Assembly: GCA_963737525.1 (NCBI GenBank) | Contig: CAVTTD010000039.1 | Coordinates: 5,113-69,112 of the forward strand | From: an uncultured Actinomycetota bacterium | GTDB taxonomy: Bacteria; Actinomycetota; UBA4738; HRBIN12 | Length of the DNA stretch: 64,000 nucleotides | Reading direction: 5' to 3' | Part shown: piece after piece, positions 5,037 to 13,232 of the stretch | Layout: the number at the start of each line of letters is the position of its first letter | Numbering within the stretch: position 1 is the first letter of the stretch | Notes under the pieces: model-generated | Databases searched by the model: none | What the model was told of the DNA's origin: nothing | What the model saw: the letters and a program-made list of their open reading frames with translations, nothing else | Program-made: the position numbers and the translations under genes

Positions 5037-5632
5037 CGGCCGAGCCGGATCCGCGTGACGGACGCGTAGACCTCGCCGTCGGGATCCTCGATCCGTCTGG
5101 GCTTGCTGGTACTGGCGCCCGCTCGCTCGGGGATCGAGAACCGGAGCGTGCTCAGGGTCTTCAGGAATCCCCCGAGGTCCTGCGATCCCAGAGGCAACCG
5201 TCCCTCCTCCGAGAAGTGGAGGTCGAGCTCGTCCCCGTCCCGGCGCCCGGCGATCGAGATGTCGACGCGCCGGGTCTGGACCTGCGCGGACGGGAAGTCG
5301 CAGCTCGCGCCTGGCAGGAGCTTCGCGACGCCGTGCCCGTCGGCGCGGCCCGACTCGGTCAACTCGATCTCGCCTCCTCGGAGGCGCCAGTCGCTCGTGC
5401 ACGAGCCGCCCACGTGGTACGTGTGCCTCGTCCGGCTGATCATCGAGACGGACCAGCGGACGAGGTCTCCGTTCGTCGCGCTGGGACTCGAGCTCGGGCT
5501 CTCGCTCGGGGGAGCGGTCGAGTCGCGCACCCCCGGCGGGAACGGGTTCGAGCGTGAGGCGATGAACGCGCCGACGCCGGCGCAGGCCAGCAGGATCGCT
5601 GCCCAAAGGAGCACCTTCCTCCACCCACGCAT
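5033..5632 (-). CDS. Hypothetical membrane-anchored/secreted protein
   Basis: N-terminal TM or signal (KVLLWAAILLACAGVGAFIA), S/P-rich linker, then a beta-rich domain with two Cys. Confidence 0.6.
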   Translation of the reverse strand: MRGWRKVLLWAAILLACAGVGAFIASRSNPFPPGVRDSTAPPSESPSSSPSATNGDLVRWSVSMISRTRHTYHVGGSCTSDWRLRGGEIELTESGRADGHGVAKLLPGASCDFPSAQVQTRRVDISIAGRRDGDELDLHFSEEGRLPLGSQDLGGFLKTLSTLRFSIPERAGASTSKPRRIEDPDGEVYASVTRIRLGR

Positions 5633-7569: not shown

Positions 7570-8347
7570 TTACGCGAGGCCCAGGAACACGGGGACGTCG
7601 GCGAAGGAGGGCAGGACGTGATCGGGTCGGCCGGCCTCGCGATCCTCGTCGCCCGCTCGAAACTTCCCCGTGCGCACGAGGATCCCGGTCAGCCCCGATG
7701 CCTGGGCACCCTGGATGTCGTTGACGATGTCGTCTCCCACCATCGCCGACCGATCCGCGGTCACACCGAGCATCGCGAGGGCCGCGTCGAAGTACGCCTT
7801 CTCCGGTTTCCCGCAGATCGTCGCCTTCGTCTCCGCGGCTTCCTCGAGCCCGGCGATGTACGCACCCCCGTCCAACTCCCAGCCCTGGCTGGTCTTCCAG
7901 AAGAGGTTCCGGTGCATGCCGACGAGCGCGGCACCATCCATCAGGCGGCGGAAGATCTTGTTCATCGTCGGGTAGGTGAACTCGTCGCACGCGCCTCCGA
8001 TCACGACCACATCGGCGTCGTCGACGGCCGTGAGCTCGACGCCGGCGAGGTCCTCCGTGGCGTCTCCGTCGGAGAGCACGAAGACCTTCTTCCCGGGATG
8101 TTCCTTCCGGAGGTAGGCGGCCGTCGCGACGACGGCCGTCACGATCTCCTCGTCGCTGACGTTCGAACCCCGCCTCCCTGAGCGTGCCGGCGAGATCGGC
8201 TCGGGTCTTGGTCGTCGTGTTCGTGATCATGCGGAACGGCACGCCGGCCTCCCGCAGACGTCGCAACGCATCGACCGCTCCGGGCAGCGGTTCCCAGGAG
8301 ACCGCGAGCACGCCGTCGATGTCGAGCAACAATCCGTCGATCGCCAC
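7570..8347 (-). CDS. HAD-IIA family hydrolase (HDHD2/LHPP-like), frameshift near 8165
   Basis: LLDIDGVL, ITNTT, CGKPEKAYF, MVGDDIVNDIQGAQASGLTGILVRTGKF. Confidence 0.92.
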
Positions 8348-8363
8348 GATCAGGAGTGTGCCA

Positions 8364-9221
8364 TCACAGGCGGATCCCCAGCGAGCGCCGCGCGCGCTCG
8401 ATCCCGACATGGTCGGCGCGTCCTCGCTCCCGAAGTCGCCACTGTTGGTAAGGAGCGATGAAGCGGTACTTCGGCGGGAGGAGCGGACGCAGCGTCCGGA
8501 GCCCCGCGAGCGTCGCGCGGACGAGCGTGCGGCTTCCCGGCCCGGACGGGAAGCCGTACCCCTCTCGCACGGCCTCGGGAAGCGTCCCGATCGCGAGCCG
8601 GGCGACCGCTCTCAGGACCGGTCGCCACTGCGCGTCACGAGGCGGATCGAAGAAGAGCTCCGCCACTCGGCGCGCCGCTTCCGTGACGACGAGTTCTCCC
8701 GATCCAACCGTCTCGGCGACGTAGTCCGCGAGGGAGGGCACCGTCGCCGGGATCCTCTCCCGAGGGAGGCGCACCATCTCGGCCGCGAGCATCTGTTCCT
8801 CGTGGAAGCGCTGGCGGTCGGCGTCTGCGAGCGCCCCCACCGTCATCCGCTCGAAGAGCAGCGCACTGTCGACGAGGCACGTGTGCACCCAGAGCAGCAA
8901 CTCCGGATCGAGCGCGTCGTAGCGCCGCCCGGTCACGGGATCCACCCCGTTGATGCGCTCGTGCACCCCGTTGATGCGTTCGGCCGCGGCATGCGCCTCG
9001 GTCTTCGTCCCGAACGTGAGGGCGTATTGCAGCACGAGCGTTCGTTGAAGCCGTTTCCACGGGTTGCGCTCGTACATGCCGGTCTGGTTCGCGCCCGCGA
9101 CCACCAACGGATGGGCGGCCTGCATGAGCATCGCTCTCGCGCCTCCGAACAGCACCGTGACCTCTCGGTGCACCCGCCAGGAAACGCTCTCCGGTCCGAA
9201 GTACCCTTCGTCGCTCCGCAC
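8364..9221 (-). CDS. Oxygenase MpaB family / DUF2236 protein
   Basis: GYFGPESVSWRVHRE...GGARAMLMQAAHPLVVAG, RLQRT, INGVHERING, YDALDPELLLWVH. Confidence 0.9.
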   Translation of the reverse strand: MRSDEGYFGPESVSWRVHREVTVLFGGARAMLMQAAHPLVVAGANQTGMYERNPWKRLQRTLVLQYALTFGTKTEAHAAAERINGVHERINGVDPVTGRRYDALDPELLLWVHTCLVDSALLFERMTVGALADADRQRFHEEQMLAAEMVRLPRERIPATVPSLADYVAETVGSGELVVTEAARRVAELFFDPPRDAQWRPVLRAVARLAIGTLPEAVREGYGFPSGPGSRTLVRATLAGLRTLRPLLPPKYRFIAPYQQWRLRERGRADHVGIERARRSLGIRL

Positions 9222-9314: not shown

Positions 9315-9985
9315 CGTGATGTTGGTCCTCATCGTGATCGGCTTGGCCGTCGGCGTTGGCTTCATCGCCGGTGGCAGCCTGCGACCGTTCGAGCGACTCA
9401 ACGTGCACTGGTGGGGTGTCGCCCTCGCCGGACTCGTTCTCCAAGGCGTCTCGCTCACGGGAGATATCGGACGATCAGCGGCCTTGGCCGTCCTCGTGGG
9501 CTCCTACGGACTCCTGCTCGCGTTCGCATGGGTGAACCGTCGGCTCCCGGCCTCGTGGCTCGTGATGGCCGGACTGGTCCTGAACATCCTCGTCATCGGG
9601 GTGAACGGTGGGATGCCGGTGAGCGCCAGCGCCCTCGACACGGCAGGTGCCGGGGCCGAGGAACTTCTCGGCGCGGGGACCGCGAAGCACCACCTCATGG
9701 GCCCCGCCGATTCCCTGACCCTCCTCGGCGATGTGATCGGGATCCCGCCGCCGGTCGGCGCCGTGATCTCGATCGGCGACGTGCTCCTCTACGCGGGCGT
9801 CGCGGATACTCGTCGTGATGATCATGCTCGGACGGTCGGGCGAGAATCGCCGGCCGCCGGCTCGGATCTTCCAGGGGTATCGGGGGAAGCATCTTCCGCC
9901 GGACCGTCACTTCTCCCGTCTCGCGGCTCGAGTGGTGTCGGTCCCGGGCGATCCCTCCCACCACCCGCCGGATCGATCGGAGTAG
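9315..9985 (+). CDS. DUF5317 family membrane protein, frameshift near 9805
   Basis: GGSLRPFERL, LNILVIGVNGGMPV, KHHL, LLGDVIGIP, VISIGDVLLYAG match my recollection of DUF5317. The second frame continues ILVVMIMLGR...YRGKHLPP to a TAG at 9983-9985. Confidence 0.8.
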
Positions 9986-11445
9986 GCCCGGGTCCTCCGC
10001 CGTCTCCGATCGACTCTGGCGGTGGCTCCGATTGGAGAAGGGACTTCGGGAACCTGACCGTGATCGTCGCGCCCTCACCGGGTGCGCTCTCGACCTCGAA
10101 GCGACCGCCACCGACCTGAGCGCGCTCACGCATCATCGCCATGCCGAAGTGACCTTCAGGGCCGGGGGCTTCCGTGTCGAAGCCAACCCCGTTGTCCTTC
10201 AAGATCAGCTCGATGTCGTCGTCTTCCTCGCGAACCGTGATCCACACATCTCTCGGCTGTGCGTGCTTCAGGGCGTTCATCACACCCTCGCGGGCGATGT
10301 GATACACGAGCAGCGCGATCGGAGCCGGGAGCTCGATGTCCTCCACGTCGCGATGGAAGCGGATCGAGGAATCGCGACCGACCTCCTCGGTGAAGGACTC
10401 GAGCGCTTCGGCAAGCCCCTTCGCTCCGAGCGGGGATCGGTGCAGGTCTCGGATGAGCGCGCGGATCCGGTCTGACGTGTCTTGCTTCGACTGACGGATC
10501 TTGTCGAGTTGCGCAGCGACGTCCTCCGTCTGACCCTTTTCGAGCAGCTTTCGGGCTACATCAACCTGGATGGAGAGCCGGAAGAGGACCTGGGCGAGGT
10601 CATCATGGAGATACCCGGCGATCTGGAGTCGTTCGTCGGCTCGTTCCTCGGCCATCGCGTTCGAAAGCGATCGAAGGACCTGCTCGCGATCCTGGAGCTC
10701 TTCGTGGGCCACTTCGAGCGCCTGCGATCGGAAGAACATCTGACGTGCAAATAGCAGGGGTGCAAGGATGGCAGGCAGCGCCCCGTATCCAACATCTTTG
10801 TATAGGAATCGCAAGACTCAAACCAACGAGGCCGAGCCCGAGGTAGCTCACGAGGAATTCGCTCAGGCGCCCGATCCGCAGCTCCCGCATCACCTGGCGG
10901 ATAGGCACCCCCGTTCGAAGACTCACGAAGATGGTTACGAGCGCGCTGTTCACGCCGTAGTCGACCAACGAGGCGGCGGCGGCCGCGATCAAGAGGATGA
11001 CTTGAGAATCGCCGGGCAGTGTCTATGCCGAACGGCGTCAATCGCATGGAAGAGGGCACTCGCTGCGAGTACCGACAAGAGCGACCTGACATCGATTGAA
11101 CAGGGCCCGGAGGCAGCGTTACTTCTCGTCGGAATTCCCTTGGATCCGACGCACCGACGAGAGCCACGGCGGCGGCGGCGACCGGCTCGTAAAGAAATGC
11201 CACGACCATCAGAAGAGGGAAGCCAACACTGATGGTCAGTCCCCGCCAAGCGGGAACAGGGAGCAGCTCCACCAGTCCGATGAGAGCGGCCCAGAAGACA
11301 AGCTCGCCCCAGTAGTCGTGGAATGCCGCAGGGTCACGGGCGACGAGGAGCGCCCCCCACGCAAGGTGGGAATGATCACGAGGAGCTCGAAGGCGACTAC
11401 CTTTCGCTGATCAACCTTGGCCGGATTCGCCCTCATGAACGTCAA
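9822..11445 (-). CDS. Membrane-sensor histidine kinase 1 (HisKA_3 + HATPase_c), about 4 frameshifts in the sensor domain
   Basis: H-box ERLQIAGYLHDDLAQ, N-box REGVMNALKHA, DNGVGF, GHFGMAMMRERA, SAPGEGAT. The multi-TM N-terminus is split over ORFs 11236..11445, 10556..11272, 10989..11249 and 10603..10992. Confidence 0.88.
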
Positions 11446-11498
11446 TCTTGTCGGTCAGAGCTCGAAGCGCAAGCAGCCCAAAAGCCGGTGCAAGGACC

Positions 11499-11533
11499 CC
11501 TACAGCATGTGTCGTACATGGCTCCTACAGCAT
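11499..11533. repeat. 10-bp direct repeat CCTACAGCAT x2 (11499-11508, 11524-11533) in the divergent intergenic region
   Basis: Exact repeat read from the sequence, 25-nt period. Confidence 0.7.
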
Positions 11534-11597
11534 CCTTCGTAGCTGCATCGGCGTCCTTGCCTATCCCCCGTTTGCCATCGATATTCACTTCCGGAGT

Positions 11598-11611
11598 CCC
11601 CCAAATGGGGG
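11598..11611. promoter_or_regulatory. Palindrome CCCCCA-AA-TGGGGG, putative regulator binding site
   Basis: Perfect 6-bp inverted repeat about 60 nt upstream of the small peptide gene. Function is inferred only. Confidence 0.35.
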
Positions 11612-11672
11612 GTTGGAATAGGTCAGAAGCGGGACTGCCTTGTTGGGCCCGTGACATGAGAGGGGGATCGGC

Positions 11673-11756
11673 ATGAAGGTCGTGCGACGGATTGCAATCG
11701 CGCTCGGCTCTCTGCTGGCTGTCGCTCTGGCTGGCGGCGCCCACTGGCGCGGCTAG
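11673..11756 (+). CDS. 27-aa small peptide precursor MKVVRRIAIALGSLLAVALAGGAHWRG
   Basis: Below the ORF-track cutoff. Purine-rich RBS GAGAGGGGG 6 nt before ATG, basic n-region, 14-aa hydrophobic core, polar tail, and a strong hairpin 27 nt after the stop. Confidence 0.8.
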   Translation: MKVVRRIAIALGSLLAVALAGGAHWRG

Positions 11757-11782
11757 ACAGACCGAACATCAGAGACTGAACC

Positions 11783-11809
11783 AAGGGGACCCTGAAGAAG
11801 GGTCCCCTT
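11783..11809. terminator. Bidirectional terminator-like hairpin between the peptide gene and kinase 2
   Basis: AAGGGGACCCT-GAAGA-AGGGTCCCCTT, a perfect 11-bp stem between convergent stops at 11756 and 11824. Confidence 0.8.
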
Positions 11810-11823
11810 CCATTTGGCGGAGT

Positions 11824-13232
11824 TCACGAATCCCTTGGGATGCTCGCGGCAACGGTAGTGCCCGACCCCAGTCTCGAGTCGACGAACATCGTCCCTCCGG
11901 CCGCTTCGAGCCTTTCCTTCATCATCTGCAGCCCGAAGTGTCTGTTGCCATCCACCCTGAACCAGTCGAACCCAGATCCATCATCAGTGACGCTGACGCG
12001 AACCATGGTTTCGTCTGCCCAGAGTCGGACAGCAATTCGTGAAGCTTGAGCGTGCTTCGAGGCGTTGTGGAGAGCCTCGCGGATGACCTGATAGGCGAGC
12101 AGCTGAGCAAGAGGGGAACTCTCAAACTCTTCTTCCTCGATGATCCACCGGGGGCGCCCCAGCGGCCGCCAGCTGATCGACCAGCATGCGAACAGTTGGG
12201 ACCAGCCCTGCAGCTCCAAGCGGAGATCGACGAAGATCGCCCAAGAGGTCCCGAATCGCCCGCTGCGCAGCGTCGGTCGCGAGGAGAAGCTCAGGGAGAT
12301 CATCGTCAAGCTCCAGCAGCCGTCCAGCCGCGAGGTCTTGCTTGAGAACCTGCCCCATGAGATGAACCTTGAATAGAGACGGAAGAACTTCATCATGTAG
12401 CTCACCGGCCAGGGCAAGGCGTTCGTCCTTCCGTTCGCGCGCCATCTCTCCAGCAGCACCACGTAGCGCCGACATCCTTTTGGCGGATGCGCTCGGTGGC
12501 GTACAGGACCTGCTGGGTCTGACGGAACATCTCCCGAGCGAGCACAAGCGGCGCGAGGAACAACAGCAGCGCCCAGATCCCACCCACCGCAACCGCAGCA
12601 GCAAGTGGCAGGGCAAGGAGGCCAAGAAGCAGGTAGCCAGCCAGGTAATGCGAGAGGCGATGCACCGAACATCCTCTTCAAGACGCCCCGGGCGTCGATC
12701 GGTCCTCGAACGAGACGGCGAAAGCCACAAGGATGAAATTGCTTCCGGCGTCAGCAAGAGAGCAGCTGCGCCAGGAAGAAGGACCCGGGCCAGTCGAGTA
12801 ATGGCTCCATCCATCACGTGGAAGAGCGCGGACCCCGCCATGACGCTTGCCGCCACTTGGCTCCGATTGAATATCGACTTCGCCAACGAAACGCTGCCCT
12901 TCAGTTCTCGTGGATCGAAGGAGCCAATGAAGGCGATAAGTGCCGCTTCGGTCGGAAGAAAGATCATTCCAGCCGCCAAGGTCACAGGAAAGGACATGCT
13001 GACGCTCACGGAACCCCACACGCGAACTGGAACAAGATCTACAGCCGCCACGGTGGCTGCCCACAATCCCAGTTGCAGGAGCTCGGCATGATTACCTGCC
13101 AGGCGAGAAGCCCCGGGGGCGGCAACTGATCGCTGTCAGGAGGCTGACAGTCCAGAGGAACGCCTTGGCCAATGGTGGCTCGTGAGTGCCGGCATCGAAG
13201 TTCCGCCTCTTGCGACCGACCGTGACCGACAT
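11824..13232 (-). CDS. Membrane-sensor histidine kinase 2 (HisKA_3 + HATPase_c), paralogue of kinase 1, several frameshifts
   Basis: RBS GGAGGAGGGG before ATG at 13232. Sensor SFDPRELKGSVSLAKSIFNRSQ, H-box ERLALAGELHDEVLP, REALHNASKHA, DDGSGF, HFGLQMMKERL, SRLGSGTT. Confidence 0.88.

Follow-up and report, generated by a model that had tools for sequence, protein, structure and literature searches.

Introduction

What does a peptide of 27 residues, encoded in the gap between two membrane sensor kinase genes, contribute to the proteins that surround it? The question is raised by a 64,000-nucleotide stretch of DNA, hereafter the window, from an uncultured Actinomycetota bacterium (GTDB lineage Bacteria; Actinomycetota; UBA4738; HRBIN12), which covers positions 5,113 to 69,112 of the forward strand of contig CAVTTD010000039.1 in assembly GCA_963737525.1, a metagenome-assembled genome (MAG) that is 59% complete. 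The coding sequence of the peptide, MKVVRRIAIALGSLLAVALAGGAHWRG, occupies positions 11673..11756 of the plus strand, stop codon included, and is one of 53 conserved loci with an open reading frame (ORF) of 27-29 codons. A first-pass annotation, made from the letters of the window, had described it as an unannotated precursor with a lipobox that lacks cysteine, from which a peptide of pheromone size would be released. Here, we report that the peptide gene is real and under purifying selection and that its linkage to proteins with the membrane sensor domain MASE9 and to the membrane protein DUF5317 holds across families, and we propose that its product is probably an intact membrane micro-protein and not the precursor of a secreted signal.

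Results

The peptide gene and its conservation

Read from the sequence, the frame of MKVVRRIAIALGSLLAVALAGGAHWRG starts with ATG at 11673 and ends with the stop codon TAG at 11754-11756. The stop-to-stop frame comprises 33 codons and contains no other possible start codon, and the ATG is therefore unambiguous. It is preceded at a distance of 5 nt by a Shine-Dalgarno site (GAGGGGGA, 11660..11667, plus strand), and a site of the GGAGG/GGGAGG type is present at the same place in every relative. The signal-peptide-like build that had been described was found as stated: a basic n-region is followed by about 14-17 hydrophobic residues and by a tail of 5-7 residues. The length of the ORF is in itself uninformative, as 101 ORFs of at least 20 residues occur in 8 kb of the window, and the 27-codon frame is significant because it is conserved and not because of its length alone. 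The term unannotated is largely true: searches of Pfam and NCBIfam gave no meaningful match for the peptides, the exact 27-mer occurs once in a collection of 15 billion proteins, and longer, mis-started versions are labeled 'hypothetical protein'. The named records with the peptide are all MAGs of uncultured soil Actinomycetota.

The intergenic DNA around the peptide was found in 9 of the 24 genomes of the same genus, in which the peptide is nearly unchanged and the flanking kinases fall to about 75% nucleotide identity; in seven species of the genus its tail is 100% identical, the kinase sensors being 70-87% identical there. When the peptide was searched for across the order, matches were obtained in 181 of 294 genomes, in 83 of 109 high-quality genomes and in 55 of 78 genera. 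The first 30 loci examined all display the ATG, a Shine-Dalgarno site of the GGAGG type, the 27-codon frame (38 codons in one) and a hairpin after the stop codon, the sequence of which differs between loci. In the window this is an 11-bp G+C hairpin at 11783..11809, strand-neutral, with a folding energy of -22 to -26 kcal/mol on either strand (z-scores of -3.7 and -2.2). Since it lies between the stop codon of the peptide gene and that of the convergent kinase 2 gene (11824), it is likely a common bidirectional terminator; a T-rich terminator was not found by a simple consensus scan, and the hairpin was recognized through its conservation.

Conservation was analyzed in 53 non-redundant loci encoding 41 distinct peptides. 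Across these loci the length is 27-29 residues (38 in one), the C-terminal pattern AGGAH[W/F/Y][K/R/H]x is kept and the tail AGGAHW occurs in 39 of the 41 distinct peptides. Residues R6, A16, A20, G21, G22 and H24 are invariant at the level of the order, and A10, L11, S13, A18, A23 and W25 nearly so; the helix is thus conserved position by position, with conserved positions distributed all around it, and the last residue is the most variable one. At the nucleotide level, entropy was 0.54, 0.23 and 1.22 for the first, second and third codon positions, i.e., third positions vary most, and the ratio of non-synonymous to synonymous polymorphism (pN/pS) was 0.26 in frame as compared to 1.26 in the +1 frame and 2.75 in the +2 frame, with synonymous sites near saturation. 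The first-pass annotation had made its case depend on a coding pattern being conserved in relatives, and the outcome clearly favors a real gene. In one orthologue (L024, contig G227:C1) the stop codon is lost and 11 further residues follow, giving a product of 38 residues that ends in AHWRGWYSYRPHSGLK; this extension may be an artefact, as indel errors are possible in that MAG.

The neighboring sensor kinases

The peptide gene is flanked by two kinase genes of the minus strand. Kinase 1 (9822..11438), in whose intact orthologues L046 and L041 Pfam recognizes MASE9, HisKA_3 and HATPase_c, is divergent from the peptide gene and starts 234 nt from its ATG. Kinase 2 (11824..13232) is a paralogue of kinase 1 with a sensor of multiple transmembrane segments, HisKA_3 and HATPase_c; it is convergent with the peptide gene at a distance of 67 nt. 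Its sensor is 38-44% identical to that of kinase 1 and matches MASE9 with an E value of 0.006, which is below the cut-off. Intact orthologues measure 510 residues for kinase 1 (in genome G002) and 468-473 residues for kinase 2. The DUF5317 gene is located about 1.6 kb away. Order and orientation of DUF5317, kinase 1, peptide and kinase 2 are kept in about 50 of the 53 loci, other families of the order included, and this synteny bears out the earlier view that the peptide is tied to the neighboring polytopic sensor kinases.

Within the genus, the ratio of non-synonymous to synonymous substitution rates (dN/dS) was 0.07-0.10 for the kinase sensors and 0.05-0.11 over all kinase segments, with dS saturated. 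A hypervariable cassette resembling agr was considered and rejected on these values of 0.05-0.11, which indicate purifying selection, diversifying selection not being visible at this resolution with dS saturated. By inspection only, no response-regulator gene was seen within about 8 kb of the locus, nor were kdp, cyd or acr genes seen near the peptide. The other neighbors are an MpaB/Lcp-like protein and, recognized by eye only, HAD, UbiE/UbiA-like, PGPGW and DUF72 proteins. Tandem duplicates of the peptide gene, and extra copies away from any kinase, were observed at L107 (G103:C31), L106 (G117:C90), L105/L099 (G193:C23), L184 (G201:C26) and L129 (G392:C13).

Related peptides outside the order

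The profile built at the level of the order gave no match in about 367 genomes from outside the order at E ≤ 1e-4; it is thus specific and not a general detector of hydrophobic peptides. More distant relatives were found through gene context. In the family f9, DUF5317 adjoins MASE9 proteins (MASE9 alone or MASE9-GGDEF), and between them, immediately upstream of the MASE9 gene, lie small ORFs that have ribosome-binding sites, namely MKFRLFRIAVALSSFAALASSVGANNKWG in two tandem copies, MKARLFRLGVTLSSFVMLMETLGAARKWGR and MRTRLLRAGMLLASLAALVAASGAGHKWY. These look-alikes share a basic N-terminus, a helix and a C-terminal G-A-x-x-[KQ]-W, and when aligned phylum-wide with the peptide of the window they show no variation at R6, G22 and A23 and more than 90% conservation at S13 and A16. 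In distant members LAG is replaced by AAS, ASSV, LAS, MST or LSA and G-A...W is kept. A profile that includes the f9 peptides finds more members in the families f9, f14, f15 and f18: ten matches in nine genomes from outside the order lie 0.26-2.8 kb from an independently found DUF5317 gene, the chance of which is about 0.002 per match.

In f9, f14 and f15, ORFs of 27-31 residues with a Shine-Dalgarno site adjoin MASE9 genes and stand directly upstream of them in most loci; in f18, a look-alike ORF lies directly upstream of DUF5317 itself. The MASE9 neighbors comprise MASE9 alone, MASE9-GGDEF, a MASE9-GAF-HisKA kinase, MASE9-HD-GYP and a MASE9-HisKA kinase, and further neighbors are a DUF5317 fusion to a transporter of the MFS type and GGDEF-EAL proteins whose membrane N-terminus is unassigned. 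That such peptides occur beside MASE9 with varied outputs implies that they track the sensor domain and not the output domain. From these alignments an unnamed MASE9/DUF5317-associated micro-peptide family can putatively be delineated: its aligned members have 27-31 residues, a basic N-terminus, an Ala/Ser/Gly-rich helix with Ser13 and Ala16, and a C-terminal G-A-x(0-3)-[KRQH]-W or W-[KR], and in the window the gene is situated within about 3 kb of both a MASE9-domain protein and a DUF5317 gene. Genes of the family consistently adjoin MASE9-type sensor domains and usually also DUF5317. An apparent fusion of the peptide to a MASE9 protein (L185, L186) was rejected, as the matches fall in small ORFs of their own, which lie immediately upstream in a different frame. 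No MASE9 protein was detected in four large Streptomyces-like genomes at the threshold used, and this search thus yielded no cultured model.

Genomes without the peptide

To judge the genomes that gave no match, kinase 1 was searched for in 12 genomes, i.e., 11 peptide-negative genomes and G002 as positive control. A clear orthologue was found in eight of the 11, and all eight contigs (G014:C15, G009:C3, G021:C23, G018:C130, G072:C118, G073:C14, G123:C96 and G017:C126; loci L111-L118) break off within kinase 1, in seven cases at residues 230-251, where the sensor and kinase domains join. In many contigs that carry the peptide gene, an end of the contig also falls within about 1 kb of it. The absences are thus assembly breaks, and the true prevalence in the order lies above 62%. 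The locus is a recurrent breakpoint of metagenome assembly, which suggests strain-level or between-species variation from the sensor/kinase junction onward; compared with a hypervariable cassette, junctions of sequence common to co-occurring relatives with variable sequence would be the simpler explanation of the breaks. In many of the peptide-bearing contigs the first position lies about 0.9-1.07 kb upstream of the peptide, which is again the sensor/kinase junction.

DUF5317

DUF5317 (PF17248) is encoded at 9319..10116 of the plus strand, convergent with kinase 1, and in nearly all loci whose flanks are long enough it is a direct neighbor. In the window its open frame comprises 266 residues as compared to 201-233 residues in relatives, and its 3' end is probably frameshifted. 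The residues N89, N96-GGMPV, K-H-H (H124-H125), D131, D138, S151-x-G-D154 and YRGKH are invariant. Two of 14 control genomes (Thermus and Thermotoga) contain DUF5317, and MASE9 is present in the same two. PF17248 is its only Pfam match, and a homologue search returned close relatives only, from which no context was gained. The companion idea that DUF5317 might be an LspA-like peptidase gained support from neither sequence nor fold: comparison with PDB sequences gave no peptidase match, and a Foldseek search of the PDB with a structural model gave a best E value of 3.4 and no LspA, a result limited by the modest confidence of the model (predicted local distance difference test, pLDDT, of 71.8). 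Among the loci with a family peptide, a natural fusion of DUF5317 with an MFS transporter was observed next to the peptide gene (L189, G463:C48, 2804-4807, minus strand), which hints that DUF5317 may work with transport.

Upstream region and transcription signals

The upstream comparison was anchored on the peptide ATG, as a whole-region MAFFT alignment was uninformative. A sigma-70-type promoter of the peptide gene is predicted, from conservation only, at 11557..11585 of the plus strand (-35 TTGCCT, 17-nt spacer, -10 GATATT); the order-wide consensus TTGTCC-N18-GATAGT was found in about 30 of 52 loci and variants of it in nearly all others, and a strict consensus scan found no promoter for the peptide gene. 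Together with the ribosome-binding site and the terminator, this predicted promoter agrees with the earlier description of a self-contained small gene. The predicted mRNA, the start of which is placed near 11592-11597, would carry at its 5' end a G+C hairpin or palindrome, TCCCCC-AAAT-GGGGGG (11597..11612, plus strand), which lies 11 nt past the -10 box and has no second example in the window. A C5-N4-G5 palindrome stands 8-11 nt past the -10 box in nearly all loci of the order, with a second copy inside the promoter spacer in many of them; it may be an mRNA 5' stem or an operator. About 200 nt upstream of the peptide are conserved within the genus, and a search of Rfam with positions 10800-12300 on both strands found nothing at E ≤ 1, so that this region corresponds to no known riboswitch or small RNA. 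A switch that would sequester the ribosome-binding site, through pairing of the 5' C-run GUCCCCC with the Shine-Dalgarno sequence GGGGGA, was rejected: the fold is non-significant (z-score of -1.3), and other genera, where the site is GGAGG, do not allow the pairing. Between the start of kinase 1 and the peptide promoter, genus-conserved blocks were observed at 11466-11556, namely AAGCGCAAGC, CCTACAGCA and CGTAGCTG, of which CCTACAGCA occurs as two direct repeats at 11499-11507 and 11524-11532, 25 nt apart. These blocks, which are not kept in the same form in other genera, may represent the kinase 1 promoter or sites for a regulator.

Assembly quality and composition

Compared with G002, about seven single-base indels are present in the sensor half of kinase 1 and about eight in kinase 2, with none in the catalytic half of kinase 1, and the kinases are split over several frames. 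After frame correction, dN/dS was 0.04-0.14 without in-frame stop codons, as in intact orthologues, which points away from pseudogenes; the indels are most likely consensus or assembly errors and not decay. Such errors probably also occur outside the kinases, as judged from the DUF5317 frame and from a HAD-type hydrolase (7570-8410, minus strand), the frame of which likewise seems to be broken in two near 8150-8200. The Pro/Gly-rich tail at the C-terminus of kinase 1 (10019 region, minus strand) has an in-frame insertion of 87 nt relative to G002. The G+C content is about 0.58-0.62 over positions ~10350-13050 as compared to 0.64-0.70 in the flanks, and at third codon positions (GC3) it is 0.64-0.67 in the kinase 1 sensor and in kinase 2, 0.77 in the catalytic half of kinase 1 and 0.8-0.9 in neighboring genes; the first-pass remark that the region is a mosaic is matched by this dip.

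Discussion

A probable intact membrane partner of MASE9 sensors

We consider it probable, judging from the sequence comparisons, that the peptide stays intact as a single-pass micro-protein of the membrane and is a partner of MASE9 sensors, possibly also of DUF5317. Its basic N-terminus (K2, R5, R6) would probably be cytoplasmic, residues 7-23 would form an Ala/Gly/Ser-rich transmembrane helix and the conserved H24-W25-[K/R]26 would be located at the outer membrane surface. Following this, the intact helix would pack on the membrane-embedded sensor domains of the kinases, and possibly on DUF5317, and would act as an obligatory subunit, a co-sensor or a dose-dependent modulator that sets kinase activity within the membrane. 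We infer its membrane insertion and topology, the contact with the sensor, the direction of regulation and the lack of cleavage. The conserved residues within the hydrophobic segment (A16 and A20 in the order; S13 and A16 phylum-wide) are unlike what is seen in a disposable targeting signal, and the orthologue at L024 tolerates an 11-residue C-terminal extension, if this is not an artefact. According to the MASE9 passages of its defining preprint, this domain has short, poorly conserved outer loops and ligand binding is inferred to take place within the membrane (Galperin and Chou, bioRxiv 10.1101/2021.11.05.467447), with which a helical partner would be in accordance.

Several points weigh against this proposal. 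The hydrophobic stretch is short (13-17 residues) and runs into the small residues A-L-A, G-G-A, as would equally be expected of a cleavable signal peptide of the Sec type; the invariant Asp, His and Ser residues of DUF5317 could form a catalytic site that acts on the peptide; in this order the peptide gene forms a transcription unit of its own, separate from those of the kinases; and every host is known as an uncultured MAG.

A more far-reaching form of the proposal, which we put forward tentatively, would make the peptide a self-made, membrane-resident input of MASE9, either as ligand or as obligatory subunit, that is handled or modified by DUF5317, so that the three parts would constitute a widespread module serving both kinases and cyclic diguanylate (c-di-GMP) enzymes. 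In that case a natural input would have been identified for a MASE9 domain for the first time.

Alternative explanations

The alternative that survives best, although we regard it as unlikely, is a processed signal: the 27-mer would be cut by signal peptidase I (between A-L-A and G or between G-G-A and H) or by DUF5317 as a new intramembrane hydrolase, and the resulting His/Trp/Arg peptide of 4-7 residues, or the remaining helix, would be the ligand of the MASE9 kinases in autocrine or quorum signaling. The n- and h-regions of a Sec signal peptide are present, with small residues at -1 and -3 that would fit signal peptidase I, the C-terminal tail is invariant with G-A...W kept across the phylum, a terminator often separates the peptide gene from the sensor genes, as with many abundant precursor peptides, and DUF5317, with its invariant D131, D138, S151-x-G-D154 and H124-H125, is adjacent in nearly every locus. 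However, the passenger would be only 4-7 residues long, the h-region is conserved position by position, DUF5317 lacks a peptidase sequence match and its model, at the confidence given above, has no counterpart at E < 3 among solved structures. Moreover, none of the known processing and export families (AgrB, ComQ, PptAB, ABC-peptidase) was found among the locus proteins scanned.

The lipobox and pheromone claims of the first-pass annotation fall under the same alternative. A lipobox (L-[AS]-[GA]-C, cut by LspA) is defined by its cysteine, the residue that is lipidated. None of the 41 distinct peptides contains cysteine, Gly is invariant at position +1 and the LAG triplet does not persist outside the order, so the notion of a Cys-less lipobox, and with it that of an Lsp substrate, has to be abandoned. 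What the peptide has in common with lipoprotein signal peptides is the basic n-region, the hydrophobic core and the string L-A-G; it differs in that no family member has a cysteine and no Lsp-like enzyme is linked to the locus. As for the pheromone, such peptides usually diversify and their mature region covaries with the receptor. Here, the tail is invariant across the order, over 55 genera, and the residues of the hydrophobic segment, which a discarded signal would not be expected to retain singly, are conserved all around the helix. It is the last residue that varies most, and one C-terminal extension of 11 residues exists. The short, poorly conserved outer loops reported in the MASE9 passages of the preprint would offer little surface to a soluble peptide. 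These observations weaken the pheromone claim, which we find not supported.

A less likely explanation still is that the peptide serves as an accessory helix of DUF5317, be it a transporter or an enzyme, and that the MASE9 sensors watch this complex or its substrate and not the peptide. It would be in line with the conservation of DUF5317 in nearly all loci, with the DUF5317-MFS fusion beside the peptide gene at L189 and with two loci, in G345 and the second locus of G201, where the peptide gene lies directly upstream of DUF5317, co-directional and at about 300 nt. Contrarily, DUF5317 is far commoner than peptide profile matches, as it occurs in 59 of the 151 genomes sampled from the phylum, often without MASE9 or the peptide nearby; most peptide genes outside the order abut a MASE9 gene and not DUF5317, and in this order the peptide gene is placed between two kinases.

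It is very improbable that the locus encodes no functional protein at all, whether it is taken as an ORF that arose by chance, an upstream ORF with a regulatory role, a segment of a non-coding RNA or a type I toxin: despite the shortness of the ORF, the genus-wide conservation of the ~200 nt upstream, a predicted 5' untranslated region whose GUCCCCC can pair with the Shine-Dalgarno sequence as in some type I toxin mRNAs, and the fact that hydrophobic peptides of this size are typical of type I toxins, the codon-position pattern and the amino-acid invariance at near-saturated synonymous sites are strong, no same-strand gene follows for which it could be a leader ORF, the fold is non-significant and its pairing impossible in the other genera, Rfam gave no match, and most genomes contain a single, syntenic and highly conserved copy and not a mobile multi-copy toxin locus.

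Significance

Bacterial kinases and c-di-GMP enzymes often carry MASE sensor domains, yet to our knowledge hardly any input of these domains has been identified; likewise, we know of no input for MASE9. If the partnership of the intact peptide with MASE9 sensors holds true, DUF5317 (PF17248) would gain its first functional context. A peptide gene that tracks MASE9 whatever the output, together with DUF5317, constitutes a concrete and cheaply testable hypothesis. Furthermore, an order-wide gene of soil Actinomycetota has been missed by standard annotation, as it falls under the usual gene-length limit of 90 nt. In a full-text literature search, MASE9 was treated as a domain only in its defining preprint, nothing was retrieved on DUF5317 and no paper named the peptide.

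Comparison with known systems

The MASE9 proteins described in the preprint include TM1467 of Thermotoga maritima and HdgA of Streptomyces venezuelae (Galperin and Chou, bioRxiv 10.1101/2021.11.05.467447). Kinase 1 of the window joins them above the Pfam cut-off and kinase 2 as a weaker paralogue, and ligand binding within the membrane would suit a helical partner. The MASE9 passages of that preprint describe no peptide and no DUF5317 partner, and the HisKA_3 kinases add a further output class to it.

With the agr system (AgrD, AgrB, AgrC) the locus shares a short peptide gene near a polytopic protein of possible processing function and multi-helix sensor kinases. AgrD is processed to a thiolactone, for which its cysteine is needed, and is hypervariable between specificity groups. 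The peptide, by contrast, has no cysteine and is invariant across the order, neither an AgrB-family domain nor similarity to a peptidase family was detected in DUF5317, and the kinase sensors of the genus show purifying selection only (dN/dS of 0.07-0.10). Small subunits such as KdpF of KdpABC, CydX of CydAB and AcrZ resemble the peptide in their size of about 25-50 residues, their single helix and the position of their genes beside those of the partners; they are found in transporter or oxidase operons, whereas the peptide sits with signaling proteins.

The best functional analogy for an uncleaved peptide is offered by small membrane regulators of sensor kinases, a functional class and not a family of homologues, such as MgrB (47 residues) and SafA, which regulate PhoQ in Enterobacteria, and likewise MzrA with EnvZ: each is a small single-pass membrane protein with its own gene that acts on a sensor kinase at or in the membrane. 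The peptide appears to be of this kind, as it has a predicted hydrophobic helix with basic and aromatic flanks and its gene is placed between two kinases. It has no known sequence relationship to these regulators. MgrB uses a periplasmic domain with cysteine, whereas the outer tail of the peptide would consist of 4-5 residues without cysteine. The peptide family also departs from the MgrB kind in that it follows a sensor type, MASE9, across kinase, GGDEF, EAL and HD-GYP outputs and not one kinase, and in being accompanied by DUF5317, a third membrane protein that is likewise conserved.
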